Positions 24,124-45,325 of a DNA stretch of 64,000 nt are shown here, one piece after another. Source of the stretch: a bacterium (lineage in GTDB: Bacteria > SAR324 > XYD2-FULL-50-16). The notes under the pieces were generated by a model. That model had not been told where the DNA came from. It saw only the letters and a program-made list of their open reading frames with translations, and searched no databases. Position 1 is the first letter of the stretch, and each line of letters begins with the position of its first letter. The stretch lies in contig JAHJTV010000066.1 in NCBI GenBank assembly GCA_018829445.1, positions 79,649 through 143,648 of the forward strand. The letters run 5' to 3'. Made by a program: the position numbers and the translations under genes.

Positions 24124-24132
24124 TTTTCTCTC

Positions 24133-25827: not shown

Positions 25828-28449
25828 CTAATCCGATATTGTTCTGATGGATTCAATAAGATGCGGAAAGGCGTCCAAGACAGACTCAATTTTTACCACA
25901 TCATAATTTCTGCTGTGGATGACCAGATTCTTTCCATATTCAATTAAAACATCCAAAGAATACTCTTTGCCGAATTCCAAGATCTGACTGCCAAAGTCCT
26001 TGATTTGATCGAATGATTCGTTTTGACGGACAGTATCCCAGCGTTTTTTGAAGTCACTTTCCAACCGTTTAGCTATTTCAGGAAGTAGCGCTCGTGTCTC
26101 AGGTGTTATCGGCCTATGTTCCTCTTCTTCACTGGCAACCTGTTTTAGCTCCTTTTTTTGATAATTGTAGTCAAGATACTTACACAATTCATTTATTAGC
26201 TCTTCCCATATTACCGGTTTAGTCAGGTAGCTGTTAAAACCTTCCTGCATGATAGAAGCAATGTCCTTATCCATTACCGAAGCTGTGATGGCAATAATGG
26301 GGATTTTTTCCAGTTCATGGTCTTTTCTAATCAGACGGGTGGCATCAACGCCACTCAAAACAGGCATTCTGATATCCATCAAAATCAGATCGGGTCGATG
26401 CTTTTTTGTTAAGATAACAGCTTCCTGCCCGTTTTGGGCAGATATGATATTAAGATTGGTTGATCTAAAAAACTCTACCAGGATCTCACGATTTGAATCG
26501 ACGTCGTCTGCCACCAACAAAGTCCCTCCTTTGAATTCGATATCCGAAAGATTAAGTTTTTCTGAGGCTTTTACTTCGGGAATATCGGTTCCTATGGAGA
26601 CATCCGGTATTACAACCTCAAAAACGCTACCTTTACCGGGTTCACTTGATAGAGAGATTGTTCCTCCCATCATTACCACCAAACGTCGAGTAATAGCCAA
26701 TCCAAGGCCGGTGCCGCCATATTCCCTGGTAATCCGTTCATCCTGTTGTTTGAACGGATCGAATATGCATTCCTGGAACTCTGCCGGTATCCCAATTCCG
26801 GTATCTTCCACCCCGAATACCAGGTTAATTTCATTAGTATCGGTTTTTTGATCACTTTGAATTGTTTTTGTGTACAGTTTCACCATTCCTTCCCGCGTAA
26901 ACTTAAAGGCATTGCCCAATAGATTAAGAAGCACCTGGCGCAACCGGATTTCATCCAACAACAGATTGTCGGGGATATCCTCGGAGACTTCCTGCAAGAA
27001 TCCAATTTGTTTTTGTGATATCTCCAGGGAGAAGATTTGTTCCATTTCAAAAAAAATATGGCGGACGTTAATCTGGCTTCGACTAATTTCCATTTGACCG
27101 GCTTCGATCTTTGAAAGATCAAGAATATCGTTTATCAATGTCAACAGTCCCTTTCCACTGGATTTGATCGATTCTAGGTAGCCCAGATGCTTTTGATCCA
27201 TATTGGTGAGACGCAGTAGATCGGAAAAACCCAGGATAGCGTTCAAGGGAGTGCGAATCTCATGGCTCATGTTAGCGAGGAAAGCACTTTTTGAGCGGTT
27301 GGCATCTTCCGCTTTTTCTTTGGCAGTCTGCAACTCCTTTTTAATTTGTTCCCTATGAATGAGTGCTCCCAGATCATTTGCAATTGTTTTCAAAACATTT
27401 ATTTCATCCGGAGTCCAGAAACGTGGTTTACGACATTCATTAAATCCAAGAACTCCCCACAACTCTCCTTCAGAAAAAACAGGAAGAAGCAGAATCGATT
27501 GAATATCAAAAGCGTTCAGTGTTTGTTGAATCTCTTCTGAAAAATCGGTTGTTTTCCCGCATACAAATTGACCGTCTCTTAATTGATCGTGCCAGTTAGC
27601 TGTTTTTATTAAGGTAGCAGCAAATTTCTGCATTTTGTCTTTTTCATCTGGCCTTTTACACTCTTCAGTTGTCCATTGGTGGTCCAAAGCAGTACATTCC
27701 CGACTGCCATTCTCGAGTACTGCACATTTAAATATGTAGGCTTTGCAGGCTTCTACGCCTTGTCCTATCTGTTTCAAAGCCTCGGGAATCGCCTGTGCAA
27801 GATCAATTGATTTTAATAATTTTTCTGCTGCCAGATTGGCTGCTTTTAAAACACTGCCGTGGTATCGGAGTGATTCCTTTGAAGATTCTGCAGCATTAAG
27901 AGCGACTTTCAGTTCCTTATTTAAAGCTACCAACTCGCGCTGCTGCTCCACAGCATTTTCATATGTGGATAAAAGCAGATCCAGGATTTGTATCCGATCC
28001 GTATTCAGGAAATGTTTTTTACCGGCAAAAAAGACTTCCACACCCATGGTTACCCCGGATTCCTGTCTCAGTTCCATGTTTGCCAGAATATATTCAATAC
28101 GGGACAAAAGGAAATTATTGTCATATGGTTTCATGATGAAATGATCTGCTCCGGCTGCAAGCCCTTTGATCACGTCTTCCGGTTCGGTAAGGGAGGTCAG
28201 GATAATCACCGGAAGGTTTTTAAACCGTTTGTTGTTCTTGATTCTGCGGCAGAGCTCAAAGCCTCCCATTTCAGGCATAACCACATCACTGATTACCAGA
28301 CCGGGGATGTCGGTTTCCAGGAACCGAAGGGCATCCAATCCATTTTCGGCAATTGAAACGAGATACCCCTGCAGTTCCAGGGTATGCTGAAGCTGCAGCG
28401 CCTGGGTTTGACTATCTTCAACTATCAGTATTCTTATCTTGTCTGCCAT
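25828..28449 (-). CDS. hybrid sensor kinase: REC - helical extension - GAF - HisKA - HATPase_c - REC - C-terminal helical (HPt-like, His-less) module
   Basis: 873 aa. REC1 (RILIVEDSQ...[13 protein letters not shown]), a GAF-like region (ACKAYIFKC...[15 protein letters not shown]), H-box [16 protein letters not shown]-boxes DTGIGIP and GTGLGLAI, and REC2 ([10 protein letters not shown]...[13 protein letters not shown]). Confidence 0.9.
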
Positions 28450-29692
28450 TTTGGATCTCTTTTTTTTCTAATTGATACCCTTTTTCTTTGAAAAGCTGTT
28501 CACAAGCCTTTACTACATTCGGATCATATAAAGTCCCGCTGTTGGAAGAAATATGATCCAATGCCTTATCCAGATCGTAGGCAGGTCGGTGCGGTCTGGA
28601 AGTGGACATGGCGTTCATCACATCTGCCACAGTCAGGGTGCGGGCCTCAATCAGGATTTCATCTCCTGAAAGTCCCAGGGGATAACCCGAACCATTCCAT
28701 TTTTCATGGTGTTGAAGGAGAATATCCGCCAGAGGCCAGGGAAATGAGGTTTTATTGAACAGATTGAAGGCAATCCCGGGGTGGGATTGTATGATATACT
28801 GTTCATTTTCAGTCAATATCCCATTCTTGTTTAATATGGACTCATTGACCTGGAGGTACCCAATATTGTGTACATGCGCCGCCATTTTTATTCCCTGGGT
28901 TTGCTTTTTGGAGAGCTTCAATTCTTTGGAGATATTGCATGCCAGGTTTGCTACCTTCAGAGCACTGCCGGTTAAATAAGGCGTACGATATTCAATTGCC
29001 CGGCTGATGGATTGGGCAAGCCCGTCTGTTGTCAATTCCAAATCGGATATTTGACTCTGTGATTCCTGCCTCATTTTTTCAAAAACCTGGAACTGCTCTT
29101 CAAGTTTTGGATGTGATCTGACTATTTCCCTTAACTCCCTGTTAGATCTTTCCAAATCCCTTTTGTTTTTAAGAGCTGTCTCATAGGTCGCAAAAAGAAG
29201 ATCAAGAATCTGAATTCGGGTTGAATTGATCTGGTGCTTCTTGCCGGCTAAGTATATCTGGAGTCCAATATTGGAACCACTTTGCCGACAAACTTTCTCG
29301 TTGATAAGAATGTAGTTGATACGAGAAAGCAGATATGCTTCATCATAAGGTTTTACTATAAAATGATCTCCGCCGCATTCCAGTCCCTTGATGATGTCTT
29401 CGGGGTCTGAGAGAATCGTCAGCATAATTACGGGAATTGTGTTCCATTTTTCATCGGATTTAATGGTACGGCAGAGTTCGAACCCGTCTATTCCAGGCAG
29501 GAGAGTATCACAGATAATAACTTCAGGTTGAAAAGTCTTGAGGGATTCAAGGGCTTCCGCACTATTGCTGGTAAGGGTAACGGCATATCTTTTCTTTTCC
29601 AGTAGAGAGCGAAGATTTATTGCCTGGTTTAGATTATCTTCCACTACCAGAATATGAGCTTTTTTCGAAGATTCTTTATCTTTTGCCACCAT
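28418..29692 (-). CDS. response regulator with an HD-GYP-type output domain whose HD dyad reads HN
   Basis: The ORF track start is 29809. The ATG at 29692 follows RBS GGGAGG ([20 protein letters not shown]). REC ([13 protein letters not shown]). Output domain motifs are [10 protein letters not shown] (canonical HDxGK) and [14 protein letters not shown] (HHExxDGxGYP). Overlaps cheB by 17 nt and the downstream hybrid kinase by 32 nt. Confidence 0.85.
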
Positions 29693-30755
29693 GATTATCC
29701 TCCCTATGAAGTGTGAGTTGAACAAGTTTTTCCGCAATTTTCTCAGGAGGCAGCTCAAATATGGCTGCTCCCAGTTTTTGCGCTTCGCCGGGCATGCCAA
29801 AAACAACACAGCTCTCTTGCTGCTGAATGATGGTGACAGCTCCCAGTTCTTTCAAACGCAGAAGGTCGCGGGCTCCATCTTTGCCCATTCCCGTCAGCAA
29901 TATCCCTACTGCATGACGTCCAAAAACTTCGGCAACCGATTGAAACAAATGTGAAACCGCAGGGCGCATATTCTCCTGCGGATGACCATTACAGAGAATC
30001 ACCTGATTTCTTGAATTGATTCCCATTTGAAAACCGACAGGAGCTAGATAGACATTACCGGGTTTTAGATAGTCTCCATGCCTTGGTATATGAATAGGAA
30101 GCTGAGATGTCTGGGATAGCCAGTCGACAAATCCCTGTAAAAAACCTTCGGCGATATGTTGAACGATGACAATGGAAACGGGGAAATACTTCGGGAGCAG
30201 CGAAAGAATGATTTGCAGCACCGGTGGTCCACCGGTTGAGGCACCTATAGCCACAATTCTGGGAGGGAAATAACTTAACCGGGGAGTTGTATCGTACCAG
30301 ATTTGCTGCTGTGAATGTGATCCCCTGGAGTCTTTTTGTTTATAGCGACGGATTACTTTAATCTCTGACATTGTTTTAATGGTGTCCACCAACTCTTTCG
30401 CTTTTTGCTTAAATTGTGGATGGTCAAGCCCCGGTGGTTTTTCCACCATGGAGACCGCCCCGGTTTTCATCACCTGAAAGGAGGTTTCCACACATTTCGG
30501 ATCCAATACGGCGGTTACAATAACTATGGGAACCGGCTTTAATTCCAGTATTCTACGAGTAGTTTCCAGCCCGTCCATTCCAGGCATTTGGATATCCATG
30601 GTAATCACATCCAGTTTACGGTTTTCGATAGCTTGCAATGCTTTTTCACCACTTTCGGCTGTTCCGATAACATTGATATCGGGGTCAAGATTCAGAATGT
30701 AAACCAGAAGGTCACGAACGACCAAAGAATCATCCACAACCAACACATTGATCAT
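29676..30755 (-). CDS. cheB: protein-glutamate methylesterase CheB (REC + methylesterase)
   Basis: 359 aa. REC (INVLVVDDS...VITMDIQMPGMDG) and an esterase domain (IVAIGASTGGP, VQHI, GMGKDGA). Confidence 0.9.
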   Translation of the reverse strand: MINVLVVDDSLVVRDLLVYILNLDPDINVIGTAESGEKALQAIENRKLDVITMDIQMPGMDGLETTRRILELKPVPIVIVTAVLDPKCVETSFQVMKTGAVSMVEKPPGLDHPQFKQKAKELVDTIKTMSEIKVIRRYKQKDSRGSHSQQQIWYDTTPRLSYFPPRIVAIGASTGGPPVLQIILSLLPKYFPVSIVIVQHIAEGFLQGFVDWLSQTSQLPIHIPRHGDYLKPGNVYLAPVGFQMGINSRNQVILCNGHPQENMRPAVSHLFQSVAEVFGRHAVGILLTGMGKDGARDLLRLKELGAVTIIQQQESCVVFGMPGEAQKLGAAIFELPPEKIAEKLVQLTLHREDNHGGKR

Positions 30756-30913
30756 AATTTTCCTCTGAAGTTTTAAAAAGAAGTTGGTTTCTGGCAGAGA
30801 ATATCCCCCCGTATCGCTGGTAAACTAATATGTACTTATCTGAATTCATGGAACTATATAATAGAGGTTACTTATTTTCGGACTCTCCTCCAATTCCGTA
30901 ATTGAAAGCCTGT

Positions 30914-33205
30914 TTAAATCATATGCCTGATTACATCCAGTAGATTGTTCTGGTCGAAGCTGCTCTTCATGATGTAAGCGTTAGCGCCGGCTTCCATGCC
31001 ATGTTCACGATCTTCCTTTGACTCAAGGGCTGTCACCAGTATCACTGGTAAATCCGATAGTGTTTCATCCTCTCGAATATTGCGAGTCAGGTCAAAACCA
31101 TTCATTCGAGGCATTTCAACATCGGCAACCACCAAATCATACGGTCGCTCTTTCAATGAAGTTATGGCATCCAGGCCATCCACCGCAGTATTAACCTCGT
31201 AACCAGCGGACTCCAATATATTCTTAAGCAGTATCCTGGCCGTTACCGAATCGTCCACCACCAGCAAACTGTTTTTATGCCCTGCTTTTTCCGTTTCGGT
31301 TTTTACCATGGTGATTAAGTCTTTACCGATTTTTCTAGTGTGTTGCATTAAATCAGGAACATTGAGAACTGGTACGATTTTTCCTTCATCAAAAACGACA
31401 ACACCGGCAATCATTTTCACTCGGGGCAACTGTTTTCCCAGGTTTTTTACCAATCCTTCCCGTTCACTGATAACCTGCTTCACGGAAACTGCAATACGAT
31501 CATTGCCATATCTTAACACAACGATCTGTGTCAGATTTTCGTTTTTCTCCTGTTTTCGAGATAGTTCCAAAACCTGATTAAGGCTTACAACAGGCACTGT
31601 TTGATCATCTACCAGAATCGTTTCCCGGCTTTCAACGGTCTTAATCTCTCCGGGTTTGATTTGGAGTACCCGTTCCACATTTACGGTAGGAATTAGGAAA
31701 TATCGGCCCGCAGTTTGTAGAAGAACTCCCCGGAACAGTGAAATACGGACCGGCAACTGCATCCTCAGTGACATACCTTTGCCCGGCTCCGATGTCAGCG
31801 CCAGATTACCATCAAGTTTATGGGTCTTTTCCTGAACAATGGACAATCCAAGACCTCTTCCGGAAATATCGGTAATGATCGGACTGGTTGATACTCCTGA
31901 CCGAAATACCAGGGCATGAATTTCATCGGATGATAACTCTCTCTCCCGGTTTTGAGAGATGACGCCCTGCTTAATGGCAATGGATTCCAGTTTTTCCGTG
32001 TTTATTCCCCGACCATCGTCTGATACAGTTAGTTCGATCAAATTTGCGTTAAGCTGCGAAATGGTAACTTCAATTTTTCCCTGCCGGTTTTTACCGAGGC
32101 GTTCCCGTTCTTCCGGTAACTCAATGCCATGATCGACAGCATTTCGGATCAAATGAATCAACGGATCTTTCATCTCTTCGAGAATACGGCGATCGATTTC
32201 AATTTCACCCCCATCAATCATCAGTAAAACGTCCTTCTTCTGATCCCTGGCAAGATCGCGTACCATTTTAGGGAAAAGTTCCATTAAAGATGAAAATGGT
32301 AGCATCAAAACTTTTTTCATATCGTCCAGTTGCGAATCGACTGCCTGACTCAAAAACCGGTGATTCTCTTCCACCGCTGTTTTCAGTTTTGTAAGTTTAC
32401 CCTCGATCTCCTTTATAAATAACTGATTCCATTTCATAAAACTCAATAGACTGACAGTTGAAAATGTCTTCGCCTCATCAACTATTTTGTCTGTAGGCAT
32501 TCTCCCCGTCGGTGTTTGAAGGCCAAGCTTTGCCCATTCCTTATGCCATTGCTCCAGAGAGTTGATTACTTGCCTAAGATTCTCTTCATGTTCTGCCAAA
32601 GCTGACTTGGAAAAAACCATTTCCTCGGTCTTCAGAATAATCTGATTCAGTCGACTCAGTGAAATGCGTACGGTATCGGAGAGTTTTATTTCGGACGGCA
32701 ATGATTCCTTTTCGATTTTTTTTTCAGTATTACCTGCACCTTTATCGACTATTTCGGGGCAGATTGATTCTGAAGTCTCATCGGAATCCGGCGGCTCCAC
32801 CCCTTCTTCTTCCATTATCAATTTTTTAAGATCTTCCAGCAATGGAACCAAAACATGTTGAGTGGTCTCAGGAGAGCTCAATCTTTCGCCAATGGCGTCC
32901 ACGGATTGATAAAGAATGCTAAAGTGTTCTGTCTTAGGGTACTGTTTCTTTTTTTTCCAAACACTAAAGAGATTCTCAAGAGATTTGCAGACCTCCTCGA
33001 TATCATTCTTGTCCACTGCTCTAGCAGCGCCCTTCAAACTGTGGGTTTCCCGGAAGATTCTTTCCAGGGCGCCCTTTCGTTCTCCATCATCGGAGGTTTG
33101 ATCGAGCATGACCAAATCGGAAGCGATGATTTTTATATGTTCATCGGCTTCTATGTCAAAAGCCGCTAATAATCTCTTTTTAAATTCTTTTTCACCCTGA
33201 CTCAT
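30914..33205 (-). CDS. cheA: CheA histidine kinase fused to a C-terminal receiver (CheA-REC)
   Basis: 763 aa. HPt (ETHSLKGAARAV), HATPase (HLIRNAVDHGIE, DDGRGI, GRGLGLS), a CheW-like domain, and REC (LLVVDDSVTAR...LVVADVEMPRMNG). No obvious P2 domain. Confidence 0.9.
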   Translation of the reverse strand: MSQGEKEFKKRLLAAFDIEADEHIKIIASDLVMLDQTSDDGERKGALERIFRETHSLKGAARAVDKNDIEEVCKSLENLFSVWKKKKQYPKTEHFSILYQSVDAIGERLSSPETTQHVLVPLLEDLKKLIMEEEGVEPPDSDETSESICPEIVDKGAGNTEKKIEKESLPSEIKLSDTVRISLSRLNQIILKTEEMVFSKSALAEHEENLRQVINSLEQWHKEWAKLGLQTPTGRMPTDKIVDEAKTFSTVSLLSFMKWNQLFIKEIEGKLTKLKTAVEENHRFLSQAVDSQLDDMKKVLMLPFSSLMELFPKMVRDLARDQKKDVLLMIDGGEIEIDRRILEEMKDPLIHLIRNAVDHGIELPEERERLGKNRQGKIEVTISQLNANLIELTVSDDGRGINTEKLESIAIKQGVISQNRERELSSDEIHALVFRSGVSTSPIITDISGRGLGLSIVQEKTHKLDGNLALTSEPGKGMSLRMQLPVRISLFRGVLLQTAGRYFLIPTVNVERVLQIKPGEIKTVESRETILVDDQTVPVVSLNQVLELSRKQEKNENLTQIVVLRYGNDRIAVSVKQVISEREGLVKNLGKQLPRVKMIAGVVVFDEGKIVPVLNVPDLMQHTRKIGKDLITMVKTETEKAGHKNSLLVVDDSVTARILLKNILESAGYEVNTAVDGLDAITSLKERPYDLVVADVEMPRMNGFDLTRNIREDETLSDLPVILVTALESKEDREHGMEAGANAYIMKSSFDQNNLLDVIRHMI

Positions 33206-33216
33206 GGTTAATCCAT

Positions 33217-35256
33217 CTAAAATGAGTATTTTCCCACCAGTAGTTTTAACCGTTGCCCAACATCGCTTAATTCTCCAGCGGACACTTCCAGTTGCCTGGA
33301 GTTGTCCAGGGTTTGTTCACTGGCTTGTCTGACATCATTCATTGCTTTTGACACCTGATCCATGCCCACCAGTTGTTGTTGGCTGGATACGGAGATCTGG
33401 GTTGCAGCCTGGGCGGATTCGGTTACGTTTTTCGCTAGTTTACGAATGGATTCTCCCATCAGCATCCCCTGTTTTTCCGTGGCATCCACCACCTTTCCAC
33501 CCTGTTCCGTTGTCAGAACTGTTTTACTTACAGCTTTTTGAATGTCATTCAGGATATTCCTGACATTGATAGTGGCCTCTTTGGACTGATCAGCCAGACG
33601 ACGGATCTCCAGGGCTACTACATTGAATCCTTTTCCGTATTCGCCGGCTTTAACAGCTTCGATGGCAGCATTAACCGCCAGCAGGTTTGATTGTTCGGCC
33701 AGATCCGCTACTGTGTTGATGATGTCCCCTATAATCTGGCTTTGCTCACTCAGTTTTATGGTGCTCTCAGCAATAAAATCCATCTGTTGTTTAATGTCAG
33801 CCAGTCCACTGATTGATTTTTCCGTTATTTCAATCCCATCCAGTGCTGCCTGTGAAACTGCCTGTGAACTGTCAGAAACCATTTTGGCCTTTTGATGGGC
33901 GATTTCGGCTGTCTGCCTGACTTCATCCACCGTGGTGGATGTTTCGCTGACGGCAGCAGCTGATTCGACGGAACTGGAAGCCAATTGGGATACGGATTCG
34001 GAGACCTGTTTGCTGGAACTTGCCAGGATATTGACACTCTCCATGATTTCGCTGATCTGAGTTCGGAGGTTTTCCGTCATGATGACCATATTGGCATAGA
34101 GTCCCCGCTTGTCATGGACTGATCCCAGATCCAAAGATAGATTACCTTTGGCTATTTCCGACACTATTCTTGCCACCTCTGCCGGTTCTCCTCCCAACTG
34201 GCGCATTACGGTGCGTACCAGAGTGAATACGATAACAGTACCTAATACAACTGTTAACAGAATACCGAAAATAACAACATTGTTAGCCAGGTTAGCAGTA
34301 TTAGCCGTCACTTTTGACCTTTCAGCCAGCAGGTTTTCTTCGATACTGATAAATTCTCCAGAATTAGCCCGGATTCCATCCATGGTTTTTTTCCCGAGGC
34401 CTGATGCCACCATAGTTGCCACATCATCCATGGAGATTGTAATTTTGTTCACCTCATTTCGGGCTTCTATTTCCGGATAAACCGCTTTCTCCAGCCACTC
34501 CTTTATCAAGGATTTCAGATCATCTATCTCCGATAAACCATTAACGAGATTTTCACTACTAGTAACAAAGTTTTTATATGTTTCCAGGTTTTTATTCAAC
34601 GAAGTATGCCCCTGGTGAAAAATCTCAAGTGATTCTTCCAAACCGTTCAGCAGAAATCCCCTCTTACCCGTTTCCATATTTACCAGATCTATTATCAGTG
34701 CTTGGACACGGTTTTGCCCCATTTGATTTTTATTTCTTTGGTGTTTTTTATCCATTGTTGATAAGACATCACGGATTTTATCGAAGATCCGTTTCCCATA
34801 AACCCTTGATTGTATCTCCTTGAAATTCGCCTGGACTTCGGCACCTTCGTTTACCTTTCTTTTTGCTGCTATCTGAACTGTGGCTATCATTTCGATCCAT
34901 TTTTCAGCCTGCTTTTCTATCTCCTCCAGCAGTCTTACCTGTGATGGATTATCACTAACCATGATTTTAGTAGCCGCCATCACTTTGGTAAAATCTTCCC
35001 GACCTTTGTTATAAGGGTCAAGAAACGTCTCGTTGCTTCCAACCAGAAACCCACGCAAGCCGGTTTCCATGTTTATCATTTCTTCCACCAGCCTGTTTCC
35101 GTTTCCAATCACTTTATAGGTATGTGTGACTAGTCTGGAGTCTTCAATCAAAGACTCTATGCTTTGATACACAACTATTCCAATCACAATCACCAGAATC
35201 AAAATAATGCTGTTACCTAATATCAGTTGAGTTCTGAACTTAATATTGTCTAACAT
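33217..35256 (-). CDS. methyl-accepting chemotaxis protein with duplicated CHASE3-like periplasmic sensor
   Basis: 679 aa. CHASE3-type motifs occur twice (HTYKVI...METGLRGFLVGSNETFLDPY; METGKRGFLLNGLEESLEIF). TM2, HAMP and signalling domain follow. The hairpin tip is divergent (LLAVNAAIEAVKAGEYGKGFNVVALEIRRLA). Confidence 0.85.
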   Translation of the reverse strand: MLDNIKFRTQLILGNSIILILVIVIGIVVYQSIESLIEDSRLVTHTYKVIGNGNRLVEEMINMETGLRGFLVGSNETFLDPYNKGREDFTKVMAATKIMVSDNPSQVRLLEEIEKQAEKWIEMIATVQIAAKRKVNEGAEVQANFKEIQSRVYGKRIFDKIRDVLSTMDKKHQRNKNQMGQNRVQALIIDLVNMETGKRGFLLNGLEESLEIFHQGHTSLNKNLETYKNFVTSSENLVNGLSEIDDLKSLIKEWLEKAVYPEIEARNEVNKITISMDDVATMVASGLGKKTMDGIRANSGEFISIEENLLAERSKVTANTANLANNVVIFGILLTVVLGTVIVFTLVRTVMRQLGGEPAEVARIVSEIAKGNLSLDLGSVHDKRGLYANMVIMTENLRTQISEIMESVNILASSSKQVSESVSQLASSSVESAAAVSETSTTVDEVRQTAEIAHQKAKMVSDSSQAVSQAALDGIEITEKSISGLADIKQQMDFIAESTIKLSEQSQIIGDIINTVADLAEQSNLLAVNAAIEAVKAGEYGKGFNVVALEIRRLADQSKEATINVRNILNDIQKAVSKTVLTTEQGGKVVDATEKQGMLMGESIRKLAKNVTESAQAATQISVSSQQQLVGMDQVSKAMNDVRQASEQTLDNSRQLEVSAGELSDVGQRLKLLVGKYSF

Positions 35257-35322
35257 TTTACCTCCTTGAATAATATGGACGCCAACTATAATGACGTTAT
35301 ATCGATATCTGCGTAACCTTTT

Positions 35323-35874
35323 TTAAACCTCTTGATTCACGCCGATTTTTTCATCCAGCAAAATTTTTACAATATCAAGAATCACCAGACGATCCCTGGT
35401 GAATCCCCTCAAGTACTCTGCCTGAATCCCGCTCAAGGTCTGCAAGGGTGGCTGAATATCAGCGATCGGAATAGAGTGTAAGCCGATGATGGCGTCTGTC
35501 AATATTCCAAATTCCATCACTTTGTTGTGAACGATAATGACCTGATTAAGATTGGTAATCCCTTTGTCCGGCAGATCAAAAAAACTCTTAAGGTCCATCA
35601 CCGAGAATATCTGCCCCCTGACGTTGATTATTCCCAATATGTAAGGCGGCAGAAACGGTAATGGTAGTAGTTCGCGTAAGTGAAAAATTTCATGTATATA
35701 CATGGCTTCAATACCGTAACGTTGATGTGCCAACTGAAATTCGACGATTTCAAGACAGATTCCTTCGAGTTGCTCATCCACCCTTGTAGCCGCAAGTTCT
35801 CTGGCACGTTCTCTTAGTATTTCCCTTTTTTTTTCGGGTGTAAGATTCGTCCTGTTCTCTCTTTCTTCAACCAT
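35323..35874 (-). CDS. cheW: CheW-like coupling protein
   Basis: The ORF track start is 35904; the ATG at 35874 (MVEERENR) follows GGTGAGG. CheW fold motifs present (GIINVRGQIFSVMDLK). Confidence 0.85.
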   Translation of the reverse strand: MVEERENRTNLTPEKKREILRERARELAATRVDEQLEGICLEIVEFQLAHQRYGIEAMYIHEIFHLRELLPLPFLPPYILGIINVRGQIFSVMDLKSFFDLPDKGITNLNQVIIVHNKVMEFGILTDAIIGLHSIPIADIQPPLQTLSGIQAEYLRGFTRDRLVILDIVKILLDEKIGVNQEV

Positions 35875-35969
35875 GTAGACCTCACCGGTTGGAATTTGAC
35901 ACATCCTGGAATTTGGTGTCGAAGTAAGGATTCATAATCGTTTCAATACGCACATTTTGCCAAAAGCAT

Positions 35970-36148
35970 GGATTACGGTAGGGCGGGGTTACATCCTCGC
36001 CAGAACTAACTCAAAGGCGGCTATGTAAGGCCGCCCTACCCGTTTGAAAAACTGAATTTTGTATCGAAAACATCCTTATTTAAGCGCTTATGGGGTTATA
36101 TCCCCGCCTGTAATTCCTTCAAGGTGGCCATATAAAGCCGCCCTACCG
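35970..36148. repeat. composite REP-like repeat, copy B, plus an adjacent partial second unit
   Basis: 35970..36094 matches 15504..15659 (over 90% apart from the 31-bp duplication in copy A). 36092..36148 repeats the GGGGTTA.ATCCCCGCC ... GGCCATA.AAGCCGCCCTACCG unit. Confidence 0.9.
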
Positions 36149-36195
36149 TTCAGGAAATACGTAATTTACTCCAAAAAATACTTATATGAACGCCC

Positions 36196-37641
36196 TTATG
36201 AATCAGGTCTGGTTAAAATACTGATATATTTTTTTAGATTTCCTGCTGTCATCCCTTCGGAATTCGGAACCGGATTTTCATCTGCCGATTTCGATAGCAA
36301 AGAAAGCGCCTGGTTAAAATACCGGTTTGACTCTTCGATACGGGCTTGACTGCGGTTGAGGTTTCCCAGTAAAACACAGGCCAGAATAAAACCTGAATCA
36401 AGATAAAGTACCTTCTTTAGATCTCTCATCGCCTCATGGATATTGTTTGATTCTTGATAAACGTTGGCCCTTAGAAAATATAAATCGGGATTCAGTTTGT
36501 CGTCGGTAATACACTTGTTACATAACCTTAATGCCTCTTCAAATCTGGCTAGGTTGGTATAGATTTTTATTAACCACTGAATTGCCAGAAAATCGTTTGG
36601 ATTCTTCTCATGAAAAACCAATACCTTTTCCAGGGCTGACAGATAATGGCCTTTTGCGTATAAAACTCGGATTTTCTCCAGCCCCGATTCAACCGTAATC
36701 TCCGGATCAATTTTGCTCCCGATCTCAGTTAGTGCTGACTCTGAAGGGGAAGACATCTGAGCTATTGGAGAAGCTGGCGCCATGTAGGCGGCTTTATTGC
36801 CTTTTCTGTAAAACACGGCATTTGAGATTGTTTCGGCTTGGTATTGTTTGAACAACATCTGTGAAGTCTCTGCCGGACTGACAATCAGACAGCCGTCTTC
36901 TGCCAGATAACCGTAAAGAGAATCTATAACCTGTTTTACTCGGACCGGATCGAAATACATGAGAACATTACGGCAAAAGATGATATCCGACCCCTGAATT
37001 TTACTTGTTAGATGATAATCGATTGGATTCACAAGGTTGAGAATACCGAAATTCACCATTTTTTGAATGCTGGGCAAAAGCTGAAACCGGTTGTTTTCTG
37101 CAGGCTCAAAGTATGTCTCTAATAGCGGCGAAGGCATGTTTCTAAATGACCAATTTCCGTAACATGCTGATTCGGCTTTCTGCAAAGATTGGGAATTGAT
37201 ATCGGTGCCCAGGATTGAGATTCGCCAACGCTTCAAATCGGGAATCAACCGATCCAATAAAATGGCCACCGAATAAGGTTCTTCTCCCGAAGCACAACCG
37301 GCACACCAGATCTTCAGTTTCGGGTTGGTTTGTCGTCGCTGATCTATTAACTCCGGTAACACATGATACTCCAATGCATTAAACACATGACGATCCCTGA
37401 AAAAATAGGTTTCTCCCGTGGTTAGATAAAGGATCAGAATGTTTATCAACTTTGCCTGGTCAGGGGAGGACAGTATCCAACGAATACAAGTTTCAGCTTT
37501 CTGATGTCCAAATTCCGCTGCGGCAGAGGTCATTATTTTTTCCAGGTTTTTAAGCTTGTCCCTGGGATAGAATAGACCGGTTTTTTCCGCGATAAAATCG
37601 CTGAATCTTGTGAGCAGATGGTTTGATAGAGTAGGAGTCAT
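36196..37641 (-). CDS. cheR: CheR methyltransferase with C-terminal TPR domain
   Basis: 481 aa. CheR N-domain plus SAM-binding domain (ETYFFRD, KIWCAGCASGEEPYS, IFCRNVLMYF), followed by ~180 aa of TPR-like repeats. The start overlaps the upstream cheW stop by 4 nt. Confidence 0.9.
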   Translation of the reverse strand: MTPTLSNHLLTRFSDFIAEKTGLFYPRDKLKNLEKIMTSAAAEFGHQKAETCIRWILSSPDQAKLINILILYLTTGETYFFRDRHVFNALEYHVLPELIDQRRQTNPKLKIWCAGCASGEEPYSVAILLDRLIPDLKRWRISILGTDINSQSLQKAESACYGNWSFRNMPSPLLETYFEPAENNRFQLLPSIQKMVNFGILNLVNPIDYHLTSKIQGSDIIFCRNVLMYFDPVRVKQVIDSLYGYLAEDGCLIVSPAETSQMLFKQYQAETISNAVFYRKGNKAAYMAPASPIAQMSSPSESALTEIGSKIDPEITVESGLEKIRVLYAKGHYLSALEKVLVFHEKNPNDFLAIQWLIKIYTNLARFEEALRLCNKCITDDKLNPDLYFLRANVYQESNNIHEAMRDLKKVLYLDSGFILACVLLGNLNRSQARIEESNRYFNQALSLLSKSADENPVPNSEGMTAGNLKKYISILTRPDS

Positions 37642-38120
37642 GGCTTCAATAAGGTTTTTCCAGGGGTTTCAAGAGTTTTCTCCAGCATTTTTTCTACTTG
37701 AAATGAAAGCAATTGCTCCGGGTTACAGACATAGATCATTCCTTCGTCACAGGCAATCGCACCTTCAATATAGTTCATATCCGATAATATGCTGCTTGCC
37801 CGAACAATGTCCTGCACAGGCGGATCAGTGATACTGCATACTATATCGACCCAAAGAGCAAAAGTGCGTCCGGGCGTATTCGTTATAATCAATTGGTCTA
37901 TGGGATCCATTTCTCTGGCTGGTAAACCAAATAGTGAACGAGTATTAATTACCGGTATAATTCGTCCATAATAGTTGATTAATCCCAGAATCGCTTTTTG
38001 TGCCTCCAGCAAAGGTGTAACCTCAACCGCCCTTATTACTCTTTCAACCATTGAGACCTTAAGAGCAAATAGTCGGGTCTCTATTTTAAAAACAAGAAGT
38101 GAATTTAATGAATTTTCCAA
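37638..38120 (-). CDS. cheW: CheW-like coupling protein
   Basis: 160 aa. LVFKIETRLFALKVSMVERV...GLINYYGRIIPVIN is CheW-like. Confidence 0.8.
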   Translation of the reverse strand: MENSLNSLLVFKIETRLFALKVSMVERVIRAVEVTPLLEAQKAILGLINYYGRIIPVINTRSLFGLPAREMDPIDQLIITNTPGRTFALWVDIVCSITDPPVQDIVRASSILSDMNYIEGAIACDEGMIYVCNPEQLLSFQVEKMLEKTLETPGKTLLKP

Positions 38121-38184
38121 TTTCTACGCTCTCCATATCCATTTTTTGATATCATAGATTATTGAGAAAACAGTGCCGTGCCTA

Positions 38185-39300
38185 TCAAATCTGGGCCAAA
38201 TTTTTGTCAGTCACCGGAATCATAAACGTAAAATCACTGCCTTTCTCTTTCTCGCTATTTACCCAGATTTTCCCGCCGTTTTTTTCAATGAAATCCTTGC
38301 ACATGATCAGACCCAGACCGGTTCCCTTTTCATTATGAACACCGTCAGTTGTGTGATGGAGATCCAACCTGAACAGTTTTTTTGTATCAACCTCATCAAT
38401 GCCTACTCCGGTATCGGAAACCGTTACTTCTTGATGTTCTTGATGTTCTTTTGAGGTGATCCGGACACTCCCTCCTTCCGGGGTGAATTTTAGGGCATTA
38501 GATAGTAAATTACGGATGACGGTGGAGATCATGTTTGGATCGCCAAAGGCAATGGTTCCGGTTTTAATCTCCGATTGTAATTCAATCTTCAGGTTGTCTG
38601 CATTATGTTTCAGCAGAAGAATATTTTGTTGTGCAATACATCCCAGGTCGATTTTCATCGGATTAAATTCTATTTTATTGGTCTGGATTCTACTCCATTC
38701 CAGCAGGTTTTCCACCAGTTGATAGAGATGTTCAGATGTTTCCAGAATACTGCCTACAAGTTTTTTTCGTTTTTCGTCAGAATATAAGTTATATTTGTCC
38801 AAAAGCAGCTTGGGATAAGATAACAGGGCATGAAATGGCCCTCTTAAGTCATGTGCAATAATGGAGAGAAATTTATCCTTGGTGGCATTGGCCAGTTTAA
38901 GTTCCTCTTGCACATCCTTCAGTTTCAAGTGACTTCTTACCCTGGCCAACAGTTCAAGACCGTCAAAGGGTTTGCAGATATAATCAACGGCTCCGACGGT
39001 AAATCCTCTCAGAGTGCTTTCATTTTCGTTCCTGGAGGTTAAAAAAATTATTGGAATCTCACAGGTTTCAGGGTAGTTTTGCAGAGCTTGGCAGACTTCA
39101 TAACCGTCCATTCCCGGCATCATGATGTCCAGCAGGATCAAATCGGGTTTCAGCAACTTGGCTCGTTCAATTGCAGTCGGTCCGTCTTTGGCAAATGACA
39201 TACTGTGATTATCTTTTTCCAGTAGACTGGCAACAACTTGGATATTCTTGGCATTGTCATCCACAATCAGAATATTGTGTTTTTTGCTCCTTTCCATCAT
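38185..39300 (-). CDS. response regulator - histidine kinase fusion (REC-HisKA-HATPase_c)
   Basis: 371 aa. REC (NILIVDDNAKN...LILLDIMMPGMDG), H-box IAHDLRGPFHAL, G-boxes DTGVGI and GTGLGLIM. Confidence 0.9.
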   Translation of the reverse strand: MMERSKKHNILIVDDNAKNIQVVASLLEKDNHSMSFAKDGPTAIERAKLLKPDLILLDIMMPGMDGYEVCQALQNYPETCEIPIIFLTSRNENESTLRGFTVGAVDYICKPFDGLELLARVRSHLKLKDVQEELKLANATKDKFLSIIAHDLRGPFHALLSYPKLLLDKYNLYSDEKRKKLVGSILETSEHLYQLVENLLEWSRIQTNKIEFNPMKIDLGCIAQQNILLLKHNADNLKIELQSEIKTGTIAFGDPNMISTVIRNLLSNALKFTPEGGSVRITSKEHQEHQEVTVSDTGVGIDEVDTKKLFRLDLHHTTDGVHNEKGTGLGLIMCKDFIEKNGGKIWVNSEKEKGSDFTFMIPVTDKNLAQI

Positions 39301-39480
39301 CCTTCCCCTGAATAGTAATCAATTATGATTGTCTTTGTTCTTTTTACCGATTCGTTTGTTTTTTCCAGGGTTGGTTATTCAATTCTCTCCTTATGATTTT
39401 TTATCCCTTTTGGTGGAACCTGTTGAATACTCTTCGTTATCTTTAAAACTTGAGAGTATGGGTTTCTCTGTAATGCCGTA

Positions 39481-39563
39481 TCCCCAGTCAAGCTGAGGAC
39501 ATGCCCGATCCGGCATCCCGTGTTTTGAAATAATGATGGATTCCATGTCAAGCATGGAAGGAC
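39481..39563. repeat. cluster of short GC-rich palindromic (REP-like) units
   Basis: TCCCCAGTCAAGCTGAGGACATGCCCGATCCGGCATC (39481..39517) is related to 15434..15466. GGATTCCATG-TCAAG-CATGGAAGGAC (39538..39563) is a 7-bp-stem palindrome. Confidence 0.75.
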
Positions 39564-39640
39564 AACAACCCCGCTTTGGATGTTTTGTATATATTTATCC
39601 GGAATTATCAGCCAGGTACCAACTACTCTGAATCAATTTT

Positions 39641-40162
39641 TCAGCTCGCCATCTCTACCGGAACCTGTTGTCCGGCTTGCTGGACAATTTCAAGTTCGTC
39701 CATGGAGAAGATTTTTTCAATATCCAGGATGATAATAAATTGATCATCCTTTTTGCCCATTCCCTTTATATAATCTGTATTCAGCTGAGTACCAATACTG
39801 GGTGGAGGTTCTATATGCTCGGAATCAAGATTCATGACCTCACTCACTGAATCGACCATGGCACCAATCATGGTGACTTCATTATCTATTTCGATCTCGG
39901 TAATAATGGTGACTGTATTGACCGTCTTTTCGACTTCACCCATACCAAACTTTACACGCATATCAATCACCGGTACCACACTGCCACGAAGGTTTATCAC
40001 CCCTTTTAATATATCCGGGGTTTGCGGTATCTTGGTTATGGTGCCGTATTCCAATACTTCACGGACTTTTGAGATGTCAAAGGCAAATACCTCACCGTCC
40101 AGTCTGAAAGTTAGAAACTGCATAGTTTCAAGTGCCACTTTTTCTTCCATTTTATATCCCAT
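39641..40162 (-). CDS. cheW: CheW-like coupling protein
   Basis: 173 aa. FLTFRLDGEVFAFDISKVREV...GVINLRGSVVPVIDMR is canonical CheW. Alternative start at 40150. Confidence 0.85.
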   Translation of the reverse strand: MGYKMEEKVALETMQFLTFRLDGEVFAFDISKVREVLEYGTITKIPQTPDILKGVINLRGSVVPVIDMRVKFGMGEVEKTVNTVTIITEIEIDNEVTMIGAMVDSVSEVMNLDSEHIEPPPSIGTQLNTDYIKGMGKKDDQFIIILDIEKIFSMDELEIVQQAGQQVPVEMAS

Positions 40163-40246
40163 AGCAATATTAGTTTTTAAGAATTTGACAGTTGAAAGTT
40201 CTCTTCTACTTTACTGAAGTTATAAATTATATTGAACAGAGATTGT

Positions 40247-40326
40247 GTCATTCCGGCCTTGAGCCGGAACCAATAATGATTACAGTATCATAGAATCCAT
40301 GGATGCCGGGTCAAGCCCGGCATGAC
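40247..40326. repeat. cluster of short GC-rich palindromic (REP-like) units
   Basis: GTCATTCCGGC-CTTGA-GCCGGAAC (40247..40270) and GGATGCCGGG-TCAA-GCCCGGCATGAC (40301..40326). Same family as 15705..15731. Confidence 0.75.
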
Positions 40327-40502
40327 AACGAGAACTTTAGACTTACACGTTAAGAATAAATCAGGCGGTTAATACTGCAAAGACTCAAGTCTCTTTAACA
40401 TACCATTTAAAAATATATCCGTTTTACAGGTTAACCCCCTTGTTGATATTGAATTCAATAGTGCAACATTAATTCTAAATCTCCATGGAAAAGGACCAGT
40501 TC

Positions 40503-42554
40503 TCAATATCGTTCAAAAGCACTATCGTCCGCTATATCATCTCTCAAATCCAGGGCGACTCCCGGCAATTTCCTGACAGCCTCCATATGGTTGTTTTTTA
40601 TAACAGGCTGTTGAGTTTTCTGTGGAATCTTTGGTTTTGGTGTTTCGTGAGAGAATTGCTGAGCAGCATGAACCTTGACAGCATGATGCATGCTGGCCGG
40701 TTTTCTAGCAGACAATGATCTGCTCTGTCCGTTTAATTTAAAGAAACCGATAGTATCCTGAAGTTGTTGAGCCTGGGAGGACAATTCTTCCGAGGTGGAG
40801 GCCATCTCTTCGGTGGCGGCAGCATTTTGCTGGATAACCTGATCAAGCTGAAGAAGAGCTTTGTTAATCTGTTCCGCTCCGGAGTTTTGTTCGTTGCTGG
40901 AAGCACTAATCTCCTGCACCAGTTCGGATGTTTTCTGGATATCCGGTACCAGTTTATTTAACATATCGCCTGCTTTTTCTGCCACATCAACACTGGAAGC
41001 GGAGAGTTCCGAGATTTCTCCGGCAGCATTCTGGCTTCGCTCAGCCAGTTTGCGTACTTCAGCCGCCACCACTGCAAACCCCTTGCCGTGCTCTCCGGCG
41101 CGGGCTGCTTCAATGGCCGCATTTAACGCCAGGAGATTTGTCTGACGGGCGATCTCCTCAATGATGGAGATCTTACTGGCGATCTCTTTCATGGCGATCA
41201 CCGATTTGGATACTGCCTGCCCGCTTACTTCGGCATCTTTGGACGCTTTCTGAGAGATTTGCTCGGTTTGATTGGAATTATCGGCATTCTGTTGAATATT
41301 GGAACTCATCTGTTCCATGGACGCAGTAGTTTCTTCAACAGAAGCTGCCTGTTCAGTAGCCCCCTGAGAAAGCTGCTGAGCCGTTGAACTGAGCTGTTCA
41401 CTGCCGGAAGCTACGTTGCCTGCAGCGGACAGTACCTCCCCGACAACCTCTTTTAATTTGTCAACAGTGTTTTTGATCTCCTTATAGACACCCCTGATAT
41501 TGGTTTCATCAAATTGGATATCCAAATCTCCCTGTCCGAGCTTCTGAGCCACTTTGCTGATTTCCTGCGGATCTTTGCCCAGTTGTGCCAGTACTCCCCT
41601 GATGATGAACAACGCCAGAACAAAACCGATAATGATGGCAATCGCTGCCAGAACTGTGACCATCAAAATCCCCTGATCATTGTCTGCCTGAACCTTGGGG
41701 CCCAGAATATCCTGTTCCTGCTTGACTGAAAGCTTGGTATCTTCCACCGCTTTGGCGATCTCTGGCCCTAGTCTGTCCAGGGTACCTGAAGTTATCTGGT
41801 TGCGATCAAAAATTACTTTAACCAGCTTGGTAAAGTTTTCCGTGTAAATATTCTTTGCTTCGACAACCTCTGACAACCATTTTTGACGCTGGGGATTCTG
41901 CAGTTCCTTGTCGAGTATATCCAGGTTGTTCTGCATTTTACCGAACTCCACATTTACCCGATCGACATGACTTTGTTCATTTTCGTCAAGAAACTTTGCC
42001 ACGTAGATGCGCCCCAACAGCAAATGCTTCATGGAAAGGGCGGAATAAAAAGAGGCTGACATGTCATTATCTTTTTCAGCCGATTCCAGAATGGATGTCA
42101 GGGTGTTTTCCATTAGCTCCCCCTTTATATTTAGAATATCATTAACCAGCGAGTTGCGGACTTTACCGGCTTCTACAACTTTTTCAAACCCTTTTTCATA
42201 ATCCGTCAGAGCGGTGGTAGCCTGATCCACCAACCGGGCTCTTTCGGTGTTCTGGATCTCCTTATGGGCTTCTTCGAGAAATCCATCGGTTATTTTTACA
42301 TAATCATTATATTGCTCCTTATCTTGATCACTGCCAGTGATAATAAAATCCTTGACATTCATACGGACCATCAGCATGTTGGCCTGAACACTGCCCATCA
42401 AGTTCGTATCCCTGGCCAATCCCCGGTAGGTTTTAAAATTTGTTGAGGCGTTATCGATCGTAATGTACGAGATAACACTCACCAAGGCCAACAGAATTAG
42501 AATAAAGGAAAATCCAAAACCCAGCTTTTTGGCCAATGACATATCTTTAAACAT
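40503..42554 (-). CDS. methyl-accepting chemotaxis protein with large helical periplasmic sensor and aromatic C-terminal tail (..AFERY)
   Basis: The ORF track start is 42668; the ATG at 42554 follows RBS AGGAGGG ([15 protein letters not shown]...). TM1, a ~290-aa periplasmic domain, TM2, HAMP, and a canonical tip [34 protein letters not shown]. Confidence 0.9.
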
Positions 42555-42755
42555 TTCACCCTCCTGAAAAGGTTCAAACGGTATTAACTGATTTACAGTC
42601 ACTGTTTTTCTTAAAAAATCAGCGATCGTAACAGCTCCCTTATGGCAAGTACGATTCAATGAAAGCACATTGCCTGAAAAAATAACCTATCTCCCTGCCT
42701 ATCCTGAAATAGGTTAAAAAATGGTGTTTTATAATATTTCCAGTGAGCATTGAAT

Positions 42756-43283
42756 TTATATCTGTCTGGCTGTCTCCTTCTCATTTCTGCTGATAACAGG
42801 TTTTTTCTCCATTTTTTTACTGACATTTGAATGAACACGGCTATGGGTGTTTATAAAGTTTTCCCCGGAATATTTGGCAAAAAGAACCGTTTTTATTTTG
42901 TCAATAAACTCAACCATATCAATTGGTTTGGCGATGAAATCGGTGGCCCCGGCCTTAAGCCCTTTTGCCTTGAGCTCCGGAGTAATCAGATTTCCAGTGA
43001 AGAGCAGGATGGGAGTATCTTCCAATGATTTTACCGCCTTCAACCGTTTGCATAATTCAATACCGTTACTCCCCGGCATTTGAAAATCCAACAGAATGGC
43101 ATCCGGCTGATGAGCGTTTGCCATTTTAAATCCTTCCCCGGGATCAGTCGTTAACAACACTCGATGATATCGCAGGTTATGTTTAATTAACTGTTGAAAC
43201 ACCAACAGGTTTTCCAGAATGTCATCCACCACCAGGATTGTCGGAAAAACGGTCTGTTTTTTTTGTTTATCGGTTGTGACCAT
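42756..43283 (-). CDS. cheY: single-domain receiver protein (CheY-like) with a short basic C-terminal tail
   Basis: 175 aa. ILVVDDILEN...AILLDFQMPGSNG...FIAKP. First gene of the Che-like block. Confidence 0.8.
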   Translation of the reverse strand: MVTTDKQKKQTVFPTILVVDDILENLLVFQQLIKHNLRYHRVLLTTDPGEGFKMANAHQPDAILLDFQMPGSNGIELCKRLKAVKSLEDTPILLFTGNLITPELKAKGLKAGATDFIAKPIDMVEFIDKIKTVLFAKYSGENFINTHSRVHSNVSKKMEKKPVISRNEKETARQI

Positions 43284-43417
43284 CAGTTTGTCTCCATTGG
43301 GGATGAATAGATCCGGTTTTTCACCCGATCAACTGCAATAGCCGTCTTTTTCCGGTGTGTTTGGTTGTTTGTCGGATAGCCTGATAAGTCTTTATAGAGA
43401 TTTCTCAACTGGTCAAT

Positions 43418-43433
43418 TGCTCAAATCGTGCCC
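43418..43433 (-). promoter_or_regulatory. candidate sigma-54 (-24/-12) promoter upstream of the Che-like block
   Basis: The minus strand reads GGGCACGATTTGAGCA: GGCACG at -24 and GC at -12 with correct GG-N10-GC spacing, 135 nt upstream of the cheY-like ATG. The T residues of the TTGC element are missing (GAGC). Confidence 0.3.
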
Positions 43434-43596
43434 GAATAAACTTGTCATAAAAATCAGTTCATAAAGCGTTCAAGCAGGAGTGGAGGAAATTCAAGAGAAG
43501 AGGATCTGATTGGAAATGGGTGACATCCAATCAATTGGCGAAAAAGGTGATAAAAAATGGAAAAGTCTTAAAGGTGAACCACTTTTGATCAAAGTT

Positions 43597-45303: not shown

Positions 45304-45325
45304 CTGGAATCGATTTTAATAGTCT

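Follow-up and report, generated by a model that had tools for sequence, protein, structure and literature searches.

A chemosensory (Che) gene cluster was analysed in a 64,000-nt stretch of DNA (hereafter, the window) from a bacterium of the GTDB lineage Bacteria; SAR324; XYD2-FULL-50-16 (GCA_018829445.1, contig JAHJTV010000066.1, positions 79,649-143,648 of the forward strand). The core of this cluster (38120-25828 of the window; Table 1) probably belongs to a phylum-spanning family of Che systems with an alternative cellular function (ACF), in which the genes stand in a fixed order and are followed by one to three output genes. In the window, the outputs are a receiver (REC) protein with a degenerate HD-GYP domain, here called HN-GYP, and a hybrid histidine kinase (HK). 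On the explanation that we favour with some reserve, the main output of core Che signalling would be a kinase relay, HN-GYP would act as its modulator, and the genes upstream would form a separate system. Such a reading would correct the annotation-level inference that the cluster degrades cyclic di-GMP (c-di-GMP).

The conserved Che core and its output position

Gene anatomy was taken from the open reading frame (ORF) list and from Pfam profile scans of the window ORFs. Related loci came from a genome scan in which each species had a single genome and similarity to the HN-GYP protein was the only seed; they were annotated with the window proteins. The order CheW-CheR(TPR)-CheW-MCP-CheA(REC)-CheB (MCP, methyl-accepting chemotaxis protein) was found in about 35 of 80 genome loci among the matches listed; these come from Desulfobacterota, Verrucomicrobiota (Chthoniobacter flavus), Ignavibacteria, several Pseudomonas species, Gemmatimonadota, Bacteroidota, Geobacterales, Acidobacteriota and others. 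It is the order of window positions 38120-29676, matched by loci L001, L002, L011, L013, L017, L104 and L105, among others, and CheR-TPR occupies in the family loci the same position as in the window. The closest named relative is Desulfobacterales bacterium HSG17 (L001), at 47-50% protein identity, and the closest CheA relatives (47-50% identity) share contigs with the closest HD-GYP relatives, in syntenic clusters. The HN-GYP clade itself was not recovered, among the matches listed, by the scan of species representatives. All 31 core-cluster MCPs in the fetched loci have as best match the signalling domain of the double-CHASE3 MCP of the window, whatever their sensor domain, with identities of mostly 40-55% (35-55% overall). 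The tip of this receptor, singled out as divergent in the first-pass annotation of this DNA, is common to the orthologous MCPs of L001 and L002 and is therefore a trait of the family.

The predicted assignment to an alternative function, already made in the first-pass annotation, draws on architecture and context. Multidomain response regulators (REC-HD_5, REC-GAF-HK-REC and REC-HK), a CheR-TPR protein and a CheA-REC protein without P2 are all present, and multidomain regulator outputs together with CheR-TPR are criteria for ACF clusters (PMC3447774). The same work reported that about 40% of the regulators in cheR-TPR clusters have a kinase module, and receiver-HD "metal-dependent phosphatase" (cd00077) regulators had already been catalogued there in silico in such clusters (PMC3447774); a study of Geobacter che clusters makes no mention of TPR, HD-GYP or hybrid outputs. 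None of the ORFs of at least 150 aa in the 64 kb matched a flagellar, pilus, cheZ, cheC or cheD family, as had been noted before. Control of motility (gliding, pili or flagella) in place of an alternative cellular function would be compatible with the CheA-REC fusions also found in classes F3, F5 and Tfp (PMC10782961), with the relatives of the 4HB MCP and CheW1 that lie in canonical CheY-CheA-CheW-CheR-CheB clusters, and with a survey that spans only 64 kb of the genome. It is nevertheless very improbable, given a window free of motility genes, CheR-TPR and multidomain receiver outputs as hallmarks of ACF systems (PMC3447774), and the presence of the same core in very diverse phyla, where it always ends in kinases or c-di-GMP enzymes.

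What the family loci have in common with the HN-GYP query is its first ~190 residues and not the HD-GYP domain. This segment, here named REC-ext, consists of a REC domain with an extension of ~60 residues, and it makes up the first ~190 codons of both terminal genes of the window (29120-29692 and 27880-28449). The extension has a consensus that includes G.KhfINsd and is covered by no Pfam model; in the AlphaFold model of HN-GYP, it forms a beta-hairpin (residues 142-157) that runs into a long stalk helix (159-236). In most loci that contain CheB, a hidden Markov model (HMM) of the extension matches the gene that immediately follows cheB, and 47 of the 50 ORFs that bear the extension lie within che clusters (loci L001-L105). 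Furthermore, P0077 and P0111, two proteins picked from the protein database by REC-ext similarity alone, are encoded directly or one gene after cheB in clusters of the same type.

The output domains attached to this module were surveyed by a Pfam scan of 36 REC-ext proteins (35 from other loci and the window hybrid kinase). The kinase ATPase domain HATPase_c is present in 26 of them and HisKA in 24; the other domains are PAS (13), GAF (11), GGDEF (6), EAL (4), Hpt (2) and HD_5 (1). The usual output of the family is therefore a second histidine kinase; a further phosphorelay had been expected among the outputs in the first-pass annotation. Because a receiver-histidine kinase is the usual gene after CheB, a kinase relay, and not HD-GYP, is the predicted core output, and the extra HN-GYP receiver protein appears as a rare and conserved addition ahead of the kinase, specific to a small lineage related to sulfate reducers. 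REC-ext outputs often come in tandem, as with the REC-GGDEF and canonical REC-HD-GYP proteins of L003; further tandems are present in L011, L016, L019 and L039. Together with the fixed gene order, REC-ext makes one large ACF Che family recognisable; such pathways occur commonly in genomes, but the output is known for few of them. The module is predicted to mark direct CheA targets, with a further histidine-kinase relay as the output in most members.

At the position of HN-GYP, L011 (9932-10726) and L104 (9163-9879) encode a short REC-ext protein. In both, a cysteine tail of the CxxC...HGxCPxC type replaces the enzyme domain, and the REC-ext of L011 groups beside the HN-GYP/GAF-kinase pair in a neighbour-joining tree.

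The HN-GYP protein and its paralogous kinase

The cheB/HN-GYP/REC-GAF-kinase triplet, pointed out in the first-pass annotation, is syntenic in every relative found, namely the four related lineages L001, L002, L005/6 and L007/8. L002 encodes CheW, CheR-TPR, CheW, MCP, CheA-REC, CheB, REC-PAS-HD-GYP and REC-GAF-kinase-REC; L001 and L005/6 have the same genes, with the cheB triplet divergent from the remainder, and L007/8 has the terminal pair (HD-GYP and kinase genes), with a cheB that runs off the contig end, unannotated. Orthologues of the hybrid kinase are encoded directly after the HN-GYP gene in L001, L006 and L007, and the HD-GYP and kinase genes overlap by 4 nt in three of the four lineages.

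The REC-ext of HN-GYP and that of the hybrid kinase share 48% identity and 73% similarity over 180 residues, with no gaps; the other REC pairs of the region have 19-41% identity. In the neighbour-joining tree, which covers 46 REC-ext modules, those of five HN-GYP proteins and those of the five GAF-kinases encoded in the same loci are sister clades with similar internal branching, and for this reason the terminal pair is read as the product of a single ancient duplication, after which the two copies were inherited together. The canonical HD-GYP protein of L003 has a REC-ext that falls elsewhere in the tree; HD-GYP therefore appears to have been recruited two or more times in the family. The H, N, G1 and G2 boxes of the hybrid kinase are intact, and the acid pocket, acceptor Asp, Thr87 and Lys109 are kept in nine of nine receiver domains. 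Past its second REC, the hybrid kinase also has a helical C-terminus of ~100 aa (25828-26140, residues ~770-873), with no Pfam match and no conserved His, which is weakly conserved in the L006 and L007 orthologues.

The HD-GYP domain of the window protein was rightly described as degenerate at first reading. HD_5 matches it at 119 bits (cut-off 27), the AF2 model (pLDDT 88) has the HD-GYP fold, and the domain has Foldseek matches to 9rbz, 4mcw and 4r8z (E 1e-10 to 1e-14), of which DvhD (9rbz) is the best. HDIGK is changed to HNIGY, where the catalytic Asp (PmGH D222) is replaced by Asn and the phosphate-contacting Lys by Tyr. In addition, PmGH H189 is Ser, E185 is Tyr (Tyr in V-cGAP3 also) and RPY is RPH. 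The residues kept include H221, H250, H276, H277 and D305 of PmGH, as well as the HHExxDGxGYP motif. Two of the eight PmGH metal ligands are lost, and neither an intact HD dyad nor a full ligand set is present. A NosR-family identity, the best match of the protein in NCBIfam, was rejected (167 bits, cut-off 400).

The window protein and four relatives (50-53% identity) all have HNIGY and RPH. At the position of His189, the residue drifts among these five clade members (S/H/H/R/C), which is read as the loss of one metal site. Mean pairwise identity in the clade is 64% for the HD-GYP domain and 67% for REC, with 69 of 165 positions invariant; a decaying pseudogene was ruled out, the HD-GYP domain being conserved as strongly as REC. 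As judged from this pattern, HN-GYP is a maintained pseudo-enzyme or an altered enzyme and not a product of decay. Among ~245 homologues with a recognisable motif, 212 have HD[ILV]GK and five have HNIGY, these five being the four relatives and one orphan without che linkage. At 50% identity, the whole clade falls into one cluster out of 1.84 billion representatives (1007 bits; next-best match, 496). An insert of ~89 residues, PAS-like, is present in the relatives and absent from the window protein.

In HD-domain hydrolases, an Asp-to-Asn change in the HD dyad abolishes metal-dependent catalysis, and HN-GYP is probably catalytically dead. The first-pass annotation had considered the output of the cluster to be related to a second messenger, of HD-GYP type. 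Degradation of a second messenger is unlikely as the output, because the domain has lost its catalytic Asp, one further metal ligand and the Lys that contacts the phosphate. In its fullest form, that view would have one integrated twelve-gene Che pathway, with second-messenger turnover by a REC-HD-GYP phosphodiesterase as the primary output and the hybrid kinase as a secondary one. It could draw on the HD_5 score well above the Pfam cut-off, on the HHE...GYP motif and the six of eight metal ligands kept, and on L003, where canonical REC-GGDEF and REC-HD-GYP proteins follow CheB, so that c-di-GMP outputs do occur in the family. However, five of five clade members have Asn for the HD Asp and Tyr for the phosphate-binding Lys, and the second ligand drifts; YN-GYP and SQ variants without activity have been documented as non-enzymes (PMC3411652, PMC13090378), the output position is most often taken by a kinase, and the two MCPs of the region are of different length classes and cluster lineages. 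We consider this single phosphodiesterase pathway unlikely. No experimental case of an HD-GYP protein as the output of a Che pathway was found in the literature searched.

Two inactive HD-GYP proteins can be compared with HN-GYP. PA2572 of Pseudomonas aeruginosa is an inactive YN-GYP receiver that works with the MCP PA2573 via protein-protein contacts of its REC domain (PMC3411652). It is similar to HN-GYP in having a receiver and a degenerate HD-GYP domain with the motif Asp changed to Asn, and the chemoreceptor link is a feature of PA2572; it differs in lying outside a cheA/cheB/cheR cluster, in having YN and not HN, and in having no paralogous kinase with a matching input module. DvhD of Desulfovibrio vulgaris is an inactive HD-GYP protein that binds c-di-GMP without hydrolysis and transmits the signal through its stalk (PDB 9rbz, PMC13090378). 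Besides being the best structural match, it shares the helical stalk; however, it is a dCache-PAS protein that sits in the membrane and belongs to a Lap-like adhesin system, and it has lost HD (SQ) and HH (MN) and keeps the Lys, whereas the window protein keeps HH and has lost the Asp, His189 and the Lys.

HN-GYP could accordingly be imagined as a cyclic-dinucleotide receptor like DvhD, in which the ligand would alter the stalk, and hence the contacts of the receiver or of a partner, coupling a second messenger to the Che-kinase relay. The structural match to the c-di-GMP-bound, catalytically dead domain of DvhD, the metal-free ligand binding that moves the DvhD stalk helices (PMC13090378), the strong conservation of the degenerate domain and the long stalk helix that joins REC-ext to the HD-GYP domain in the model are all consistent with a receptor. 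On the other side, the window protein has Tyr in place of the Lys through which DvhD and PmGH contact the phosphodiester, RPY is RPH, and the PAS-like insert of the relatives is missing, so sensing may lie elsewhere; a receptor role is therefore regarded as doubtful. A tentative proposal, to which we give a low probability, is that a nucleotide-sensing HN-GYP pseudo-phosphodiesterase shares a Che-specific docking module, REC-ext, with the hybrid kinase and gates the flow of CheA phosphate to this kinase. If this were true, a chemosensory pathway would sense the level of a second messenger at its output stage, and REC-ext would be an undescribed signature that predicts CheA-target receivers across many phyla. 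Should HN-GYP act as a modulator of the relay or as a nucleotide sensor, its HD-GYP domain would clearly exemplify repurposing within a chemosensory pathway.

Proposed relay and known Che systems

For the kinase relay with HN-GYP as modulator, the following course is proposed. The double-CHASE3 receptor would control CheA via two CheW proteins, with CheR and CheB responsible for adaptation. The phosphate of CheA~P would be shared among its own REC, which may serve as a phosphate sink, CheB and the two REC-ext receivers. Phosphorylation of REC-ext would switch the autokinase activity of the GAF-kinase on or off, as CheA3 does with CheS3 in Rhodospirillum centenum, and would in this way start or stop a relay to a further acceptor. 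HN-GYP, probably without metal-dependent hydrolysis, would most likely act as a competitor for CheA~P or as a partner binder that tunes the relay; its partner is possibly the paralogous kinase, contacted via the shared stalk, and the tuning may respond to a nucleotide ligand. The upstream PAS-kinase, NtrC-like activator, REC, short-class MCP, CheW and REC-kinase would be a separate unit, with an MCP-CheW pair of a different receptor class.

No characterised example of this wiring was known to the first-pass annotation; the Che3 system of R. centenum is an experimental analogue of its CheA-to-kinase step. There, CheA3 phosphorylates REC1 of the kinase CheS3, controlling CheS3, and the REC of CheA3 itself is a phosphate sink (PMC3868531). 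Similarly to Che3, which has two CheW, CheR, one MCP, CheA-REC, CheB, a receiver-fused kinase and a single-domain receiver (PMC3868531), the window has all of these in one cluster, and the acceptor Asp is present in the N-terminal REC of the kinase. The two systems differ in their kinases, CheS3 being REC-REC-PAS with an HWE kinase whereas the window kinase is of HisKA type with GAF and a C-terminal REC, and in the HD-GYP protein, which Che3 lacks. The REC-HisKA-HATPase kinase upstream of the core has an architecture similar to that of CheS3.

The Wsp system of Pseudomonas resembles the window cluster as a non-motility system with CheA-REC, CheR-TPR, two CheW, CheB and a receiver-first output gene directly after cheB. 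Its output, WspR, is a REC-GGDEF protein for c-di-GMP synthesis, whereas the window outputs are a pseudo-HD-GYP protein and a hybrid kinase, and Pfam found no GGDEF domain in the window cluster. The wsp operon begins with wspA (MCP), followed by the genes for CheW, CheR, CheW, CheA and CheB; in the window, the MCP gene is not first and lies between the second core cheW and cheA. A Wsp orthologue was ruled out, as output and gene order both differ. Another likeness is found in the Che3 cluster of Myxococcus xanthus with CrdS/CrdA, where a Che-like cluster also lies beside a histidine kinase and an NtrC-like sigma-54 activator, and where this activator is the pathway output (PMC3147164). However, the NtrC-like gene of the window belongs to the upstream module, with no link to the core CheA seen, and M. 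xanthus Che3 has neither a CheA-REC-to-kinase relay nor an HD-GYP protein.

Several points weigh against the relay and the family as described here. The CheA-REC fusion is shared with the flagellar classes F3 and F5 (PMC10782961). Residual or altered hydrolytic activity may remain in HN-GYP, because six of the eight metal ligands and HHE...GYP are kept, and ligand sensing is a weak part of the model, because the lost phosphate-contacting Lys argues against canonical c-di-GMP binding. The genome scan was seeded by a REC motif and its counts cover the matches listed, so the family frequencies are not unbiased. The REC-ext tree is a simple neighbour-joining tree without support values. Finally, an Hpt partner or a terminal regulator for the hybrid kinase was not identifiable in the window.

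Upstream module, repeats and gene layout

The two MCPs of the window differ in length, with symmetric insertions of 21+21 residues in the CHASE3 MCP compared with the 4HB MCP. The CHASE3 MCP has the length of the CtpM profile, and the 4HB MCP falls ~11-17 residues short of the Tar, Trg, Tcp and Vibrio Aer2 profiles; these lengths fit the 40H class for the former and the 34H class for the latter, class names that we infer. In a metagenome scan with the 4HB MCP as query, the 4HB MCP-CheW1 pair was found at 76%/73% identity in L092 and in nine further loci. The MCP-CheW pair lies in L094, L097, L099 and L101 within canonical clusters of CheY, CheA (no REC), MCP, CheW, CheR (no TPR) and CheB. In L096 the order is PAS-HK-REC, NtrC, MCP, CheW, the same as in the window, and a classical kinase comes after the pair in L093 and L095, with PAS kinases and an NtrC-like activator nearby. 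Because the pair recurs in these other settings, positions 48073-38185 (module A) and 38120-25828 (module B) are predicted to be adjacent, separate systems. The first-pass suggestion of a composite of two modules thus stands as far as the two MCP classes and separate cluster lineages are concerned; the boundary lies near 38.1-38.2 kb and not at a repeat-filled spacer, where it had been sought.

An MCP-CheW pair without CheA in the locus was observed in window positions 38185-48073 and in L093, L095 and L096, an order that recurs in unrelated metagenome contigs. Possibly, some MCP-CheW pairs signal to kinases other than CheA, or to a CheA encoded elsewhere. This CheA-less MCP-CheW-kinase module and the REC-ext signature are the most useful by-products of the analysis.

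Imperfect palindromes similar to repetitive extragenic palindromic (REP) elements, GGTAGGGCGG...CCGCCCTACC, are present at 15511-15605 as well as in the cheR-cheW3 spacer, with three arms at each site, and the GGTAGGGCGG family has six matches in the window compared with none expected. For a hairpin of the 40.2-40.5 kb spacer that was tested in the same way, the window has a single occurrence. The earlier description of REP-filled spacers thus holds for 35.9-36.2 kb, which has a recurring family, and not for the hairpin tested at 40.2-40.5 kb. In relatives, cheR and cheW abut or overlap, and the REP insert separates cheR from cheW3 in the window; the spacer, with cheR on one side and the second core cheW on the other, is internal to the conserved core and is not a module boundary.

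Table 1. Signalling genes and repeats of the two modules, in window coordinates.
Feature	Position	Strand	Source	Remarks
PAS x3-HisKA-HATPase-REC hybrid kinase	45326-48073	minus	Pfam	Module A; upstream of the range of the first-pass annotation
NtrC-like REC-sigma-54 AAA+-HTH_8 activator	43597-45303	minus	Pfam	Module A
CheY-like single-domain REC, 175 aa	42756-43283	minus	Pfam	Module A; D12/D13/D57/T87/K109 intact
4HB_MCP + MCPsignal receptor	40503-42668	minus	Pfam	Module A; shorter length class, canonical tip
CheW1	39641-40162	minus	Pfam	Module A; partner of 4HB MCP
REC-HisKA-HATPase kinase	38185-39300	minus	Pfam, ext HMM	Probably module A; without REC-ext
CheW2	37638-38120	minus	Pfam	Module B; first gene of conserved core
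CheR (residues 77-261) + TPR tail (~350-420)	36196-37641	minus	Pfam	Module B
REP-like palindromic repeats	35977-36147		Repeat matching	Between cheR and cheW3
CheW3	35323-35904	minus	Pfam	Module B
Core MCP, two CHASE3 stretches + MCPsignal	33217-35256	minus	Pfam	Module B; long-class signalling domain
CheA, Hpt-HATPase-CheW-REC	30914-33205	minus	Pfam	Module B
CheB methylesterase, REC + CheB_methylest	29676-30755	minus	Pfam	Module B
HN-GYP, REC-ext-helical stalk-degenerate HD-GYP, 424 aa	28418-29692	minus	Pfam REC + HD_5	Module B
REC-ext-GAF-HisKA-HATPase-REC hybrid kinase	25828-28449	minus	Pfam	Module B; ~100-aa C-terminal helical tail

The ORF list and Pfam reproduced the twelve minus-strand genes of the first-pass annotation with their domain architectures, as well as the overlaps of 17 nt between cheB and the HN-GYP gene and 32 nt between the HN-GYP and hybrid kinase genes. 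The run of signalling genes on this strand is, in fact, longer than these twelve and goes on upstream, with the NtrC-like activator and the PAS hybrid kinase, to 48 kb. The NtrC-like gene starts 22 nt past the PAS hybrid kinase gene, cheW2 and cheR overlap by 4 nt, and the HN-GYP gene starts with the ATG at 29692, with the ribosome-binding site GGGAGG ahead of it. CheA has neither a P2 nor an H-kinase_dim match in the Pfam scan. Among NCBIfam subfamily models, only the CheB cut-off (PRK00742) was passed, by CheB; the CheA matches were sub-threshold, and no family-specific names were obtained for proteins of the cluster.

The Rfam and tRNA scans of the window gave no matches. A promoter/terminator scan of the window performed no better than on shuffled sequence and is therefore uninformative on operon structure, and a search for sigma-54 promoters gave no significant site. 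A GGCAC-N5-GAGCA match with sigma-54-like GG-N10-GC spacing, GGGCACGATTTGAGCA, is present at ~43418-43433 (minus). It comes just after the NtrC-like gene and ~135-150 nt ahead of the stand-alone REC gene, and has three mismatches to the consensus, where window matches with up to two mismatches are already at chance level.

Beyond the cluster, a sigma-54 AAA+/HTH_8 activator is encoded at 24921-25787 (+), convergent with the hybrid kinase gene and with 40 nt between the ends. Its AAA profile match begins at profile position 19 and it has no N-terminal regulatory domain, so it is PspF-like or else truncated. Two short adjoining ORFs beside a TRAP transporter operon (23791-24687, minus) match 4Fe-4S (110 aa) and molybdopterin-dinucleotide-binding (184 aa) domains and resemble molybdopterin oxidoreductase fragments or small subunits. 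Additionally, a sigma-54 activator at 61347-63158 (+) has an N-terminal domain of low-molecular-weight phosphotyrosine phosphatase/arsenate-reductase type followed by PAS, an uncommon input for an enhancer-binding protein.

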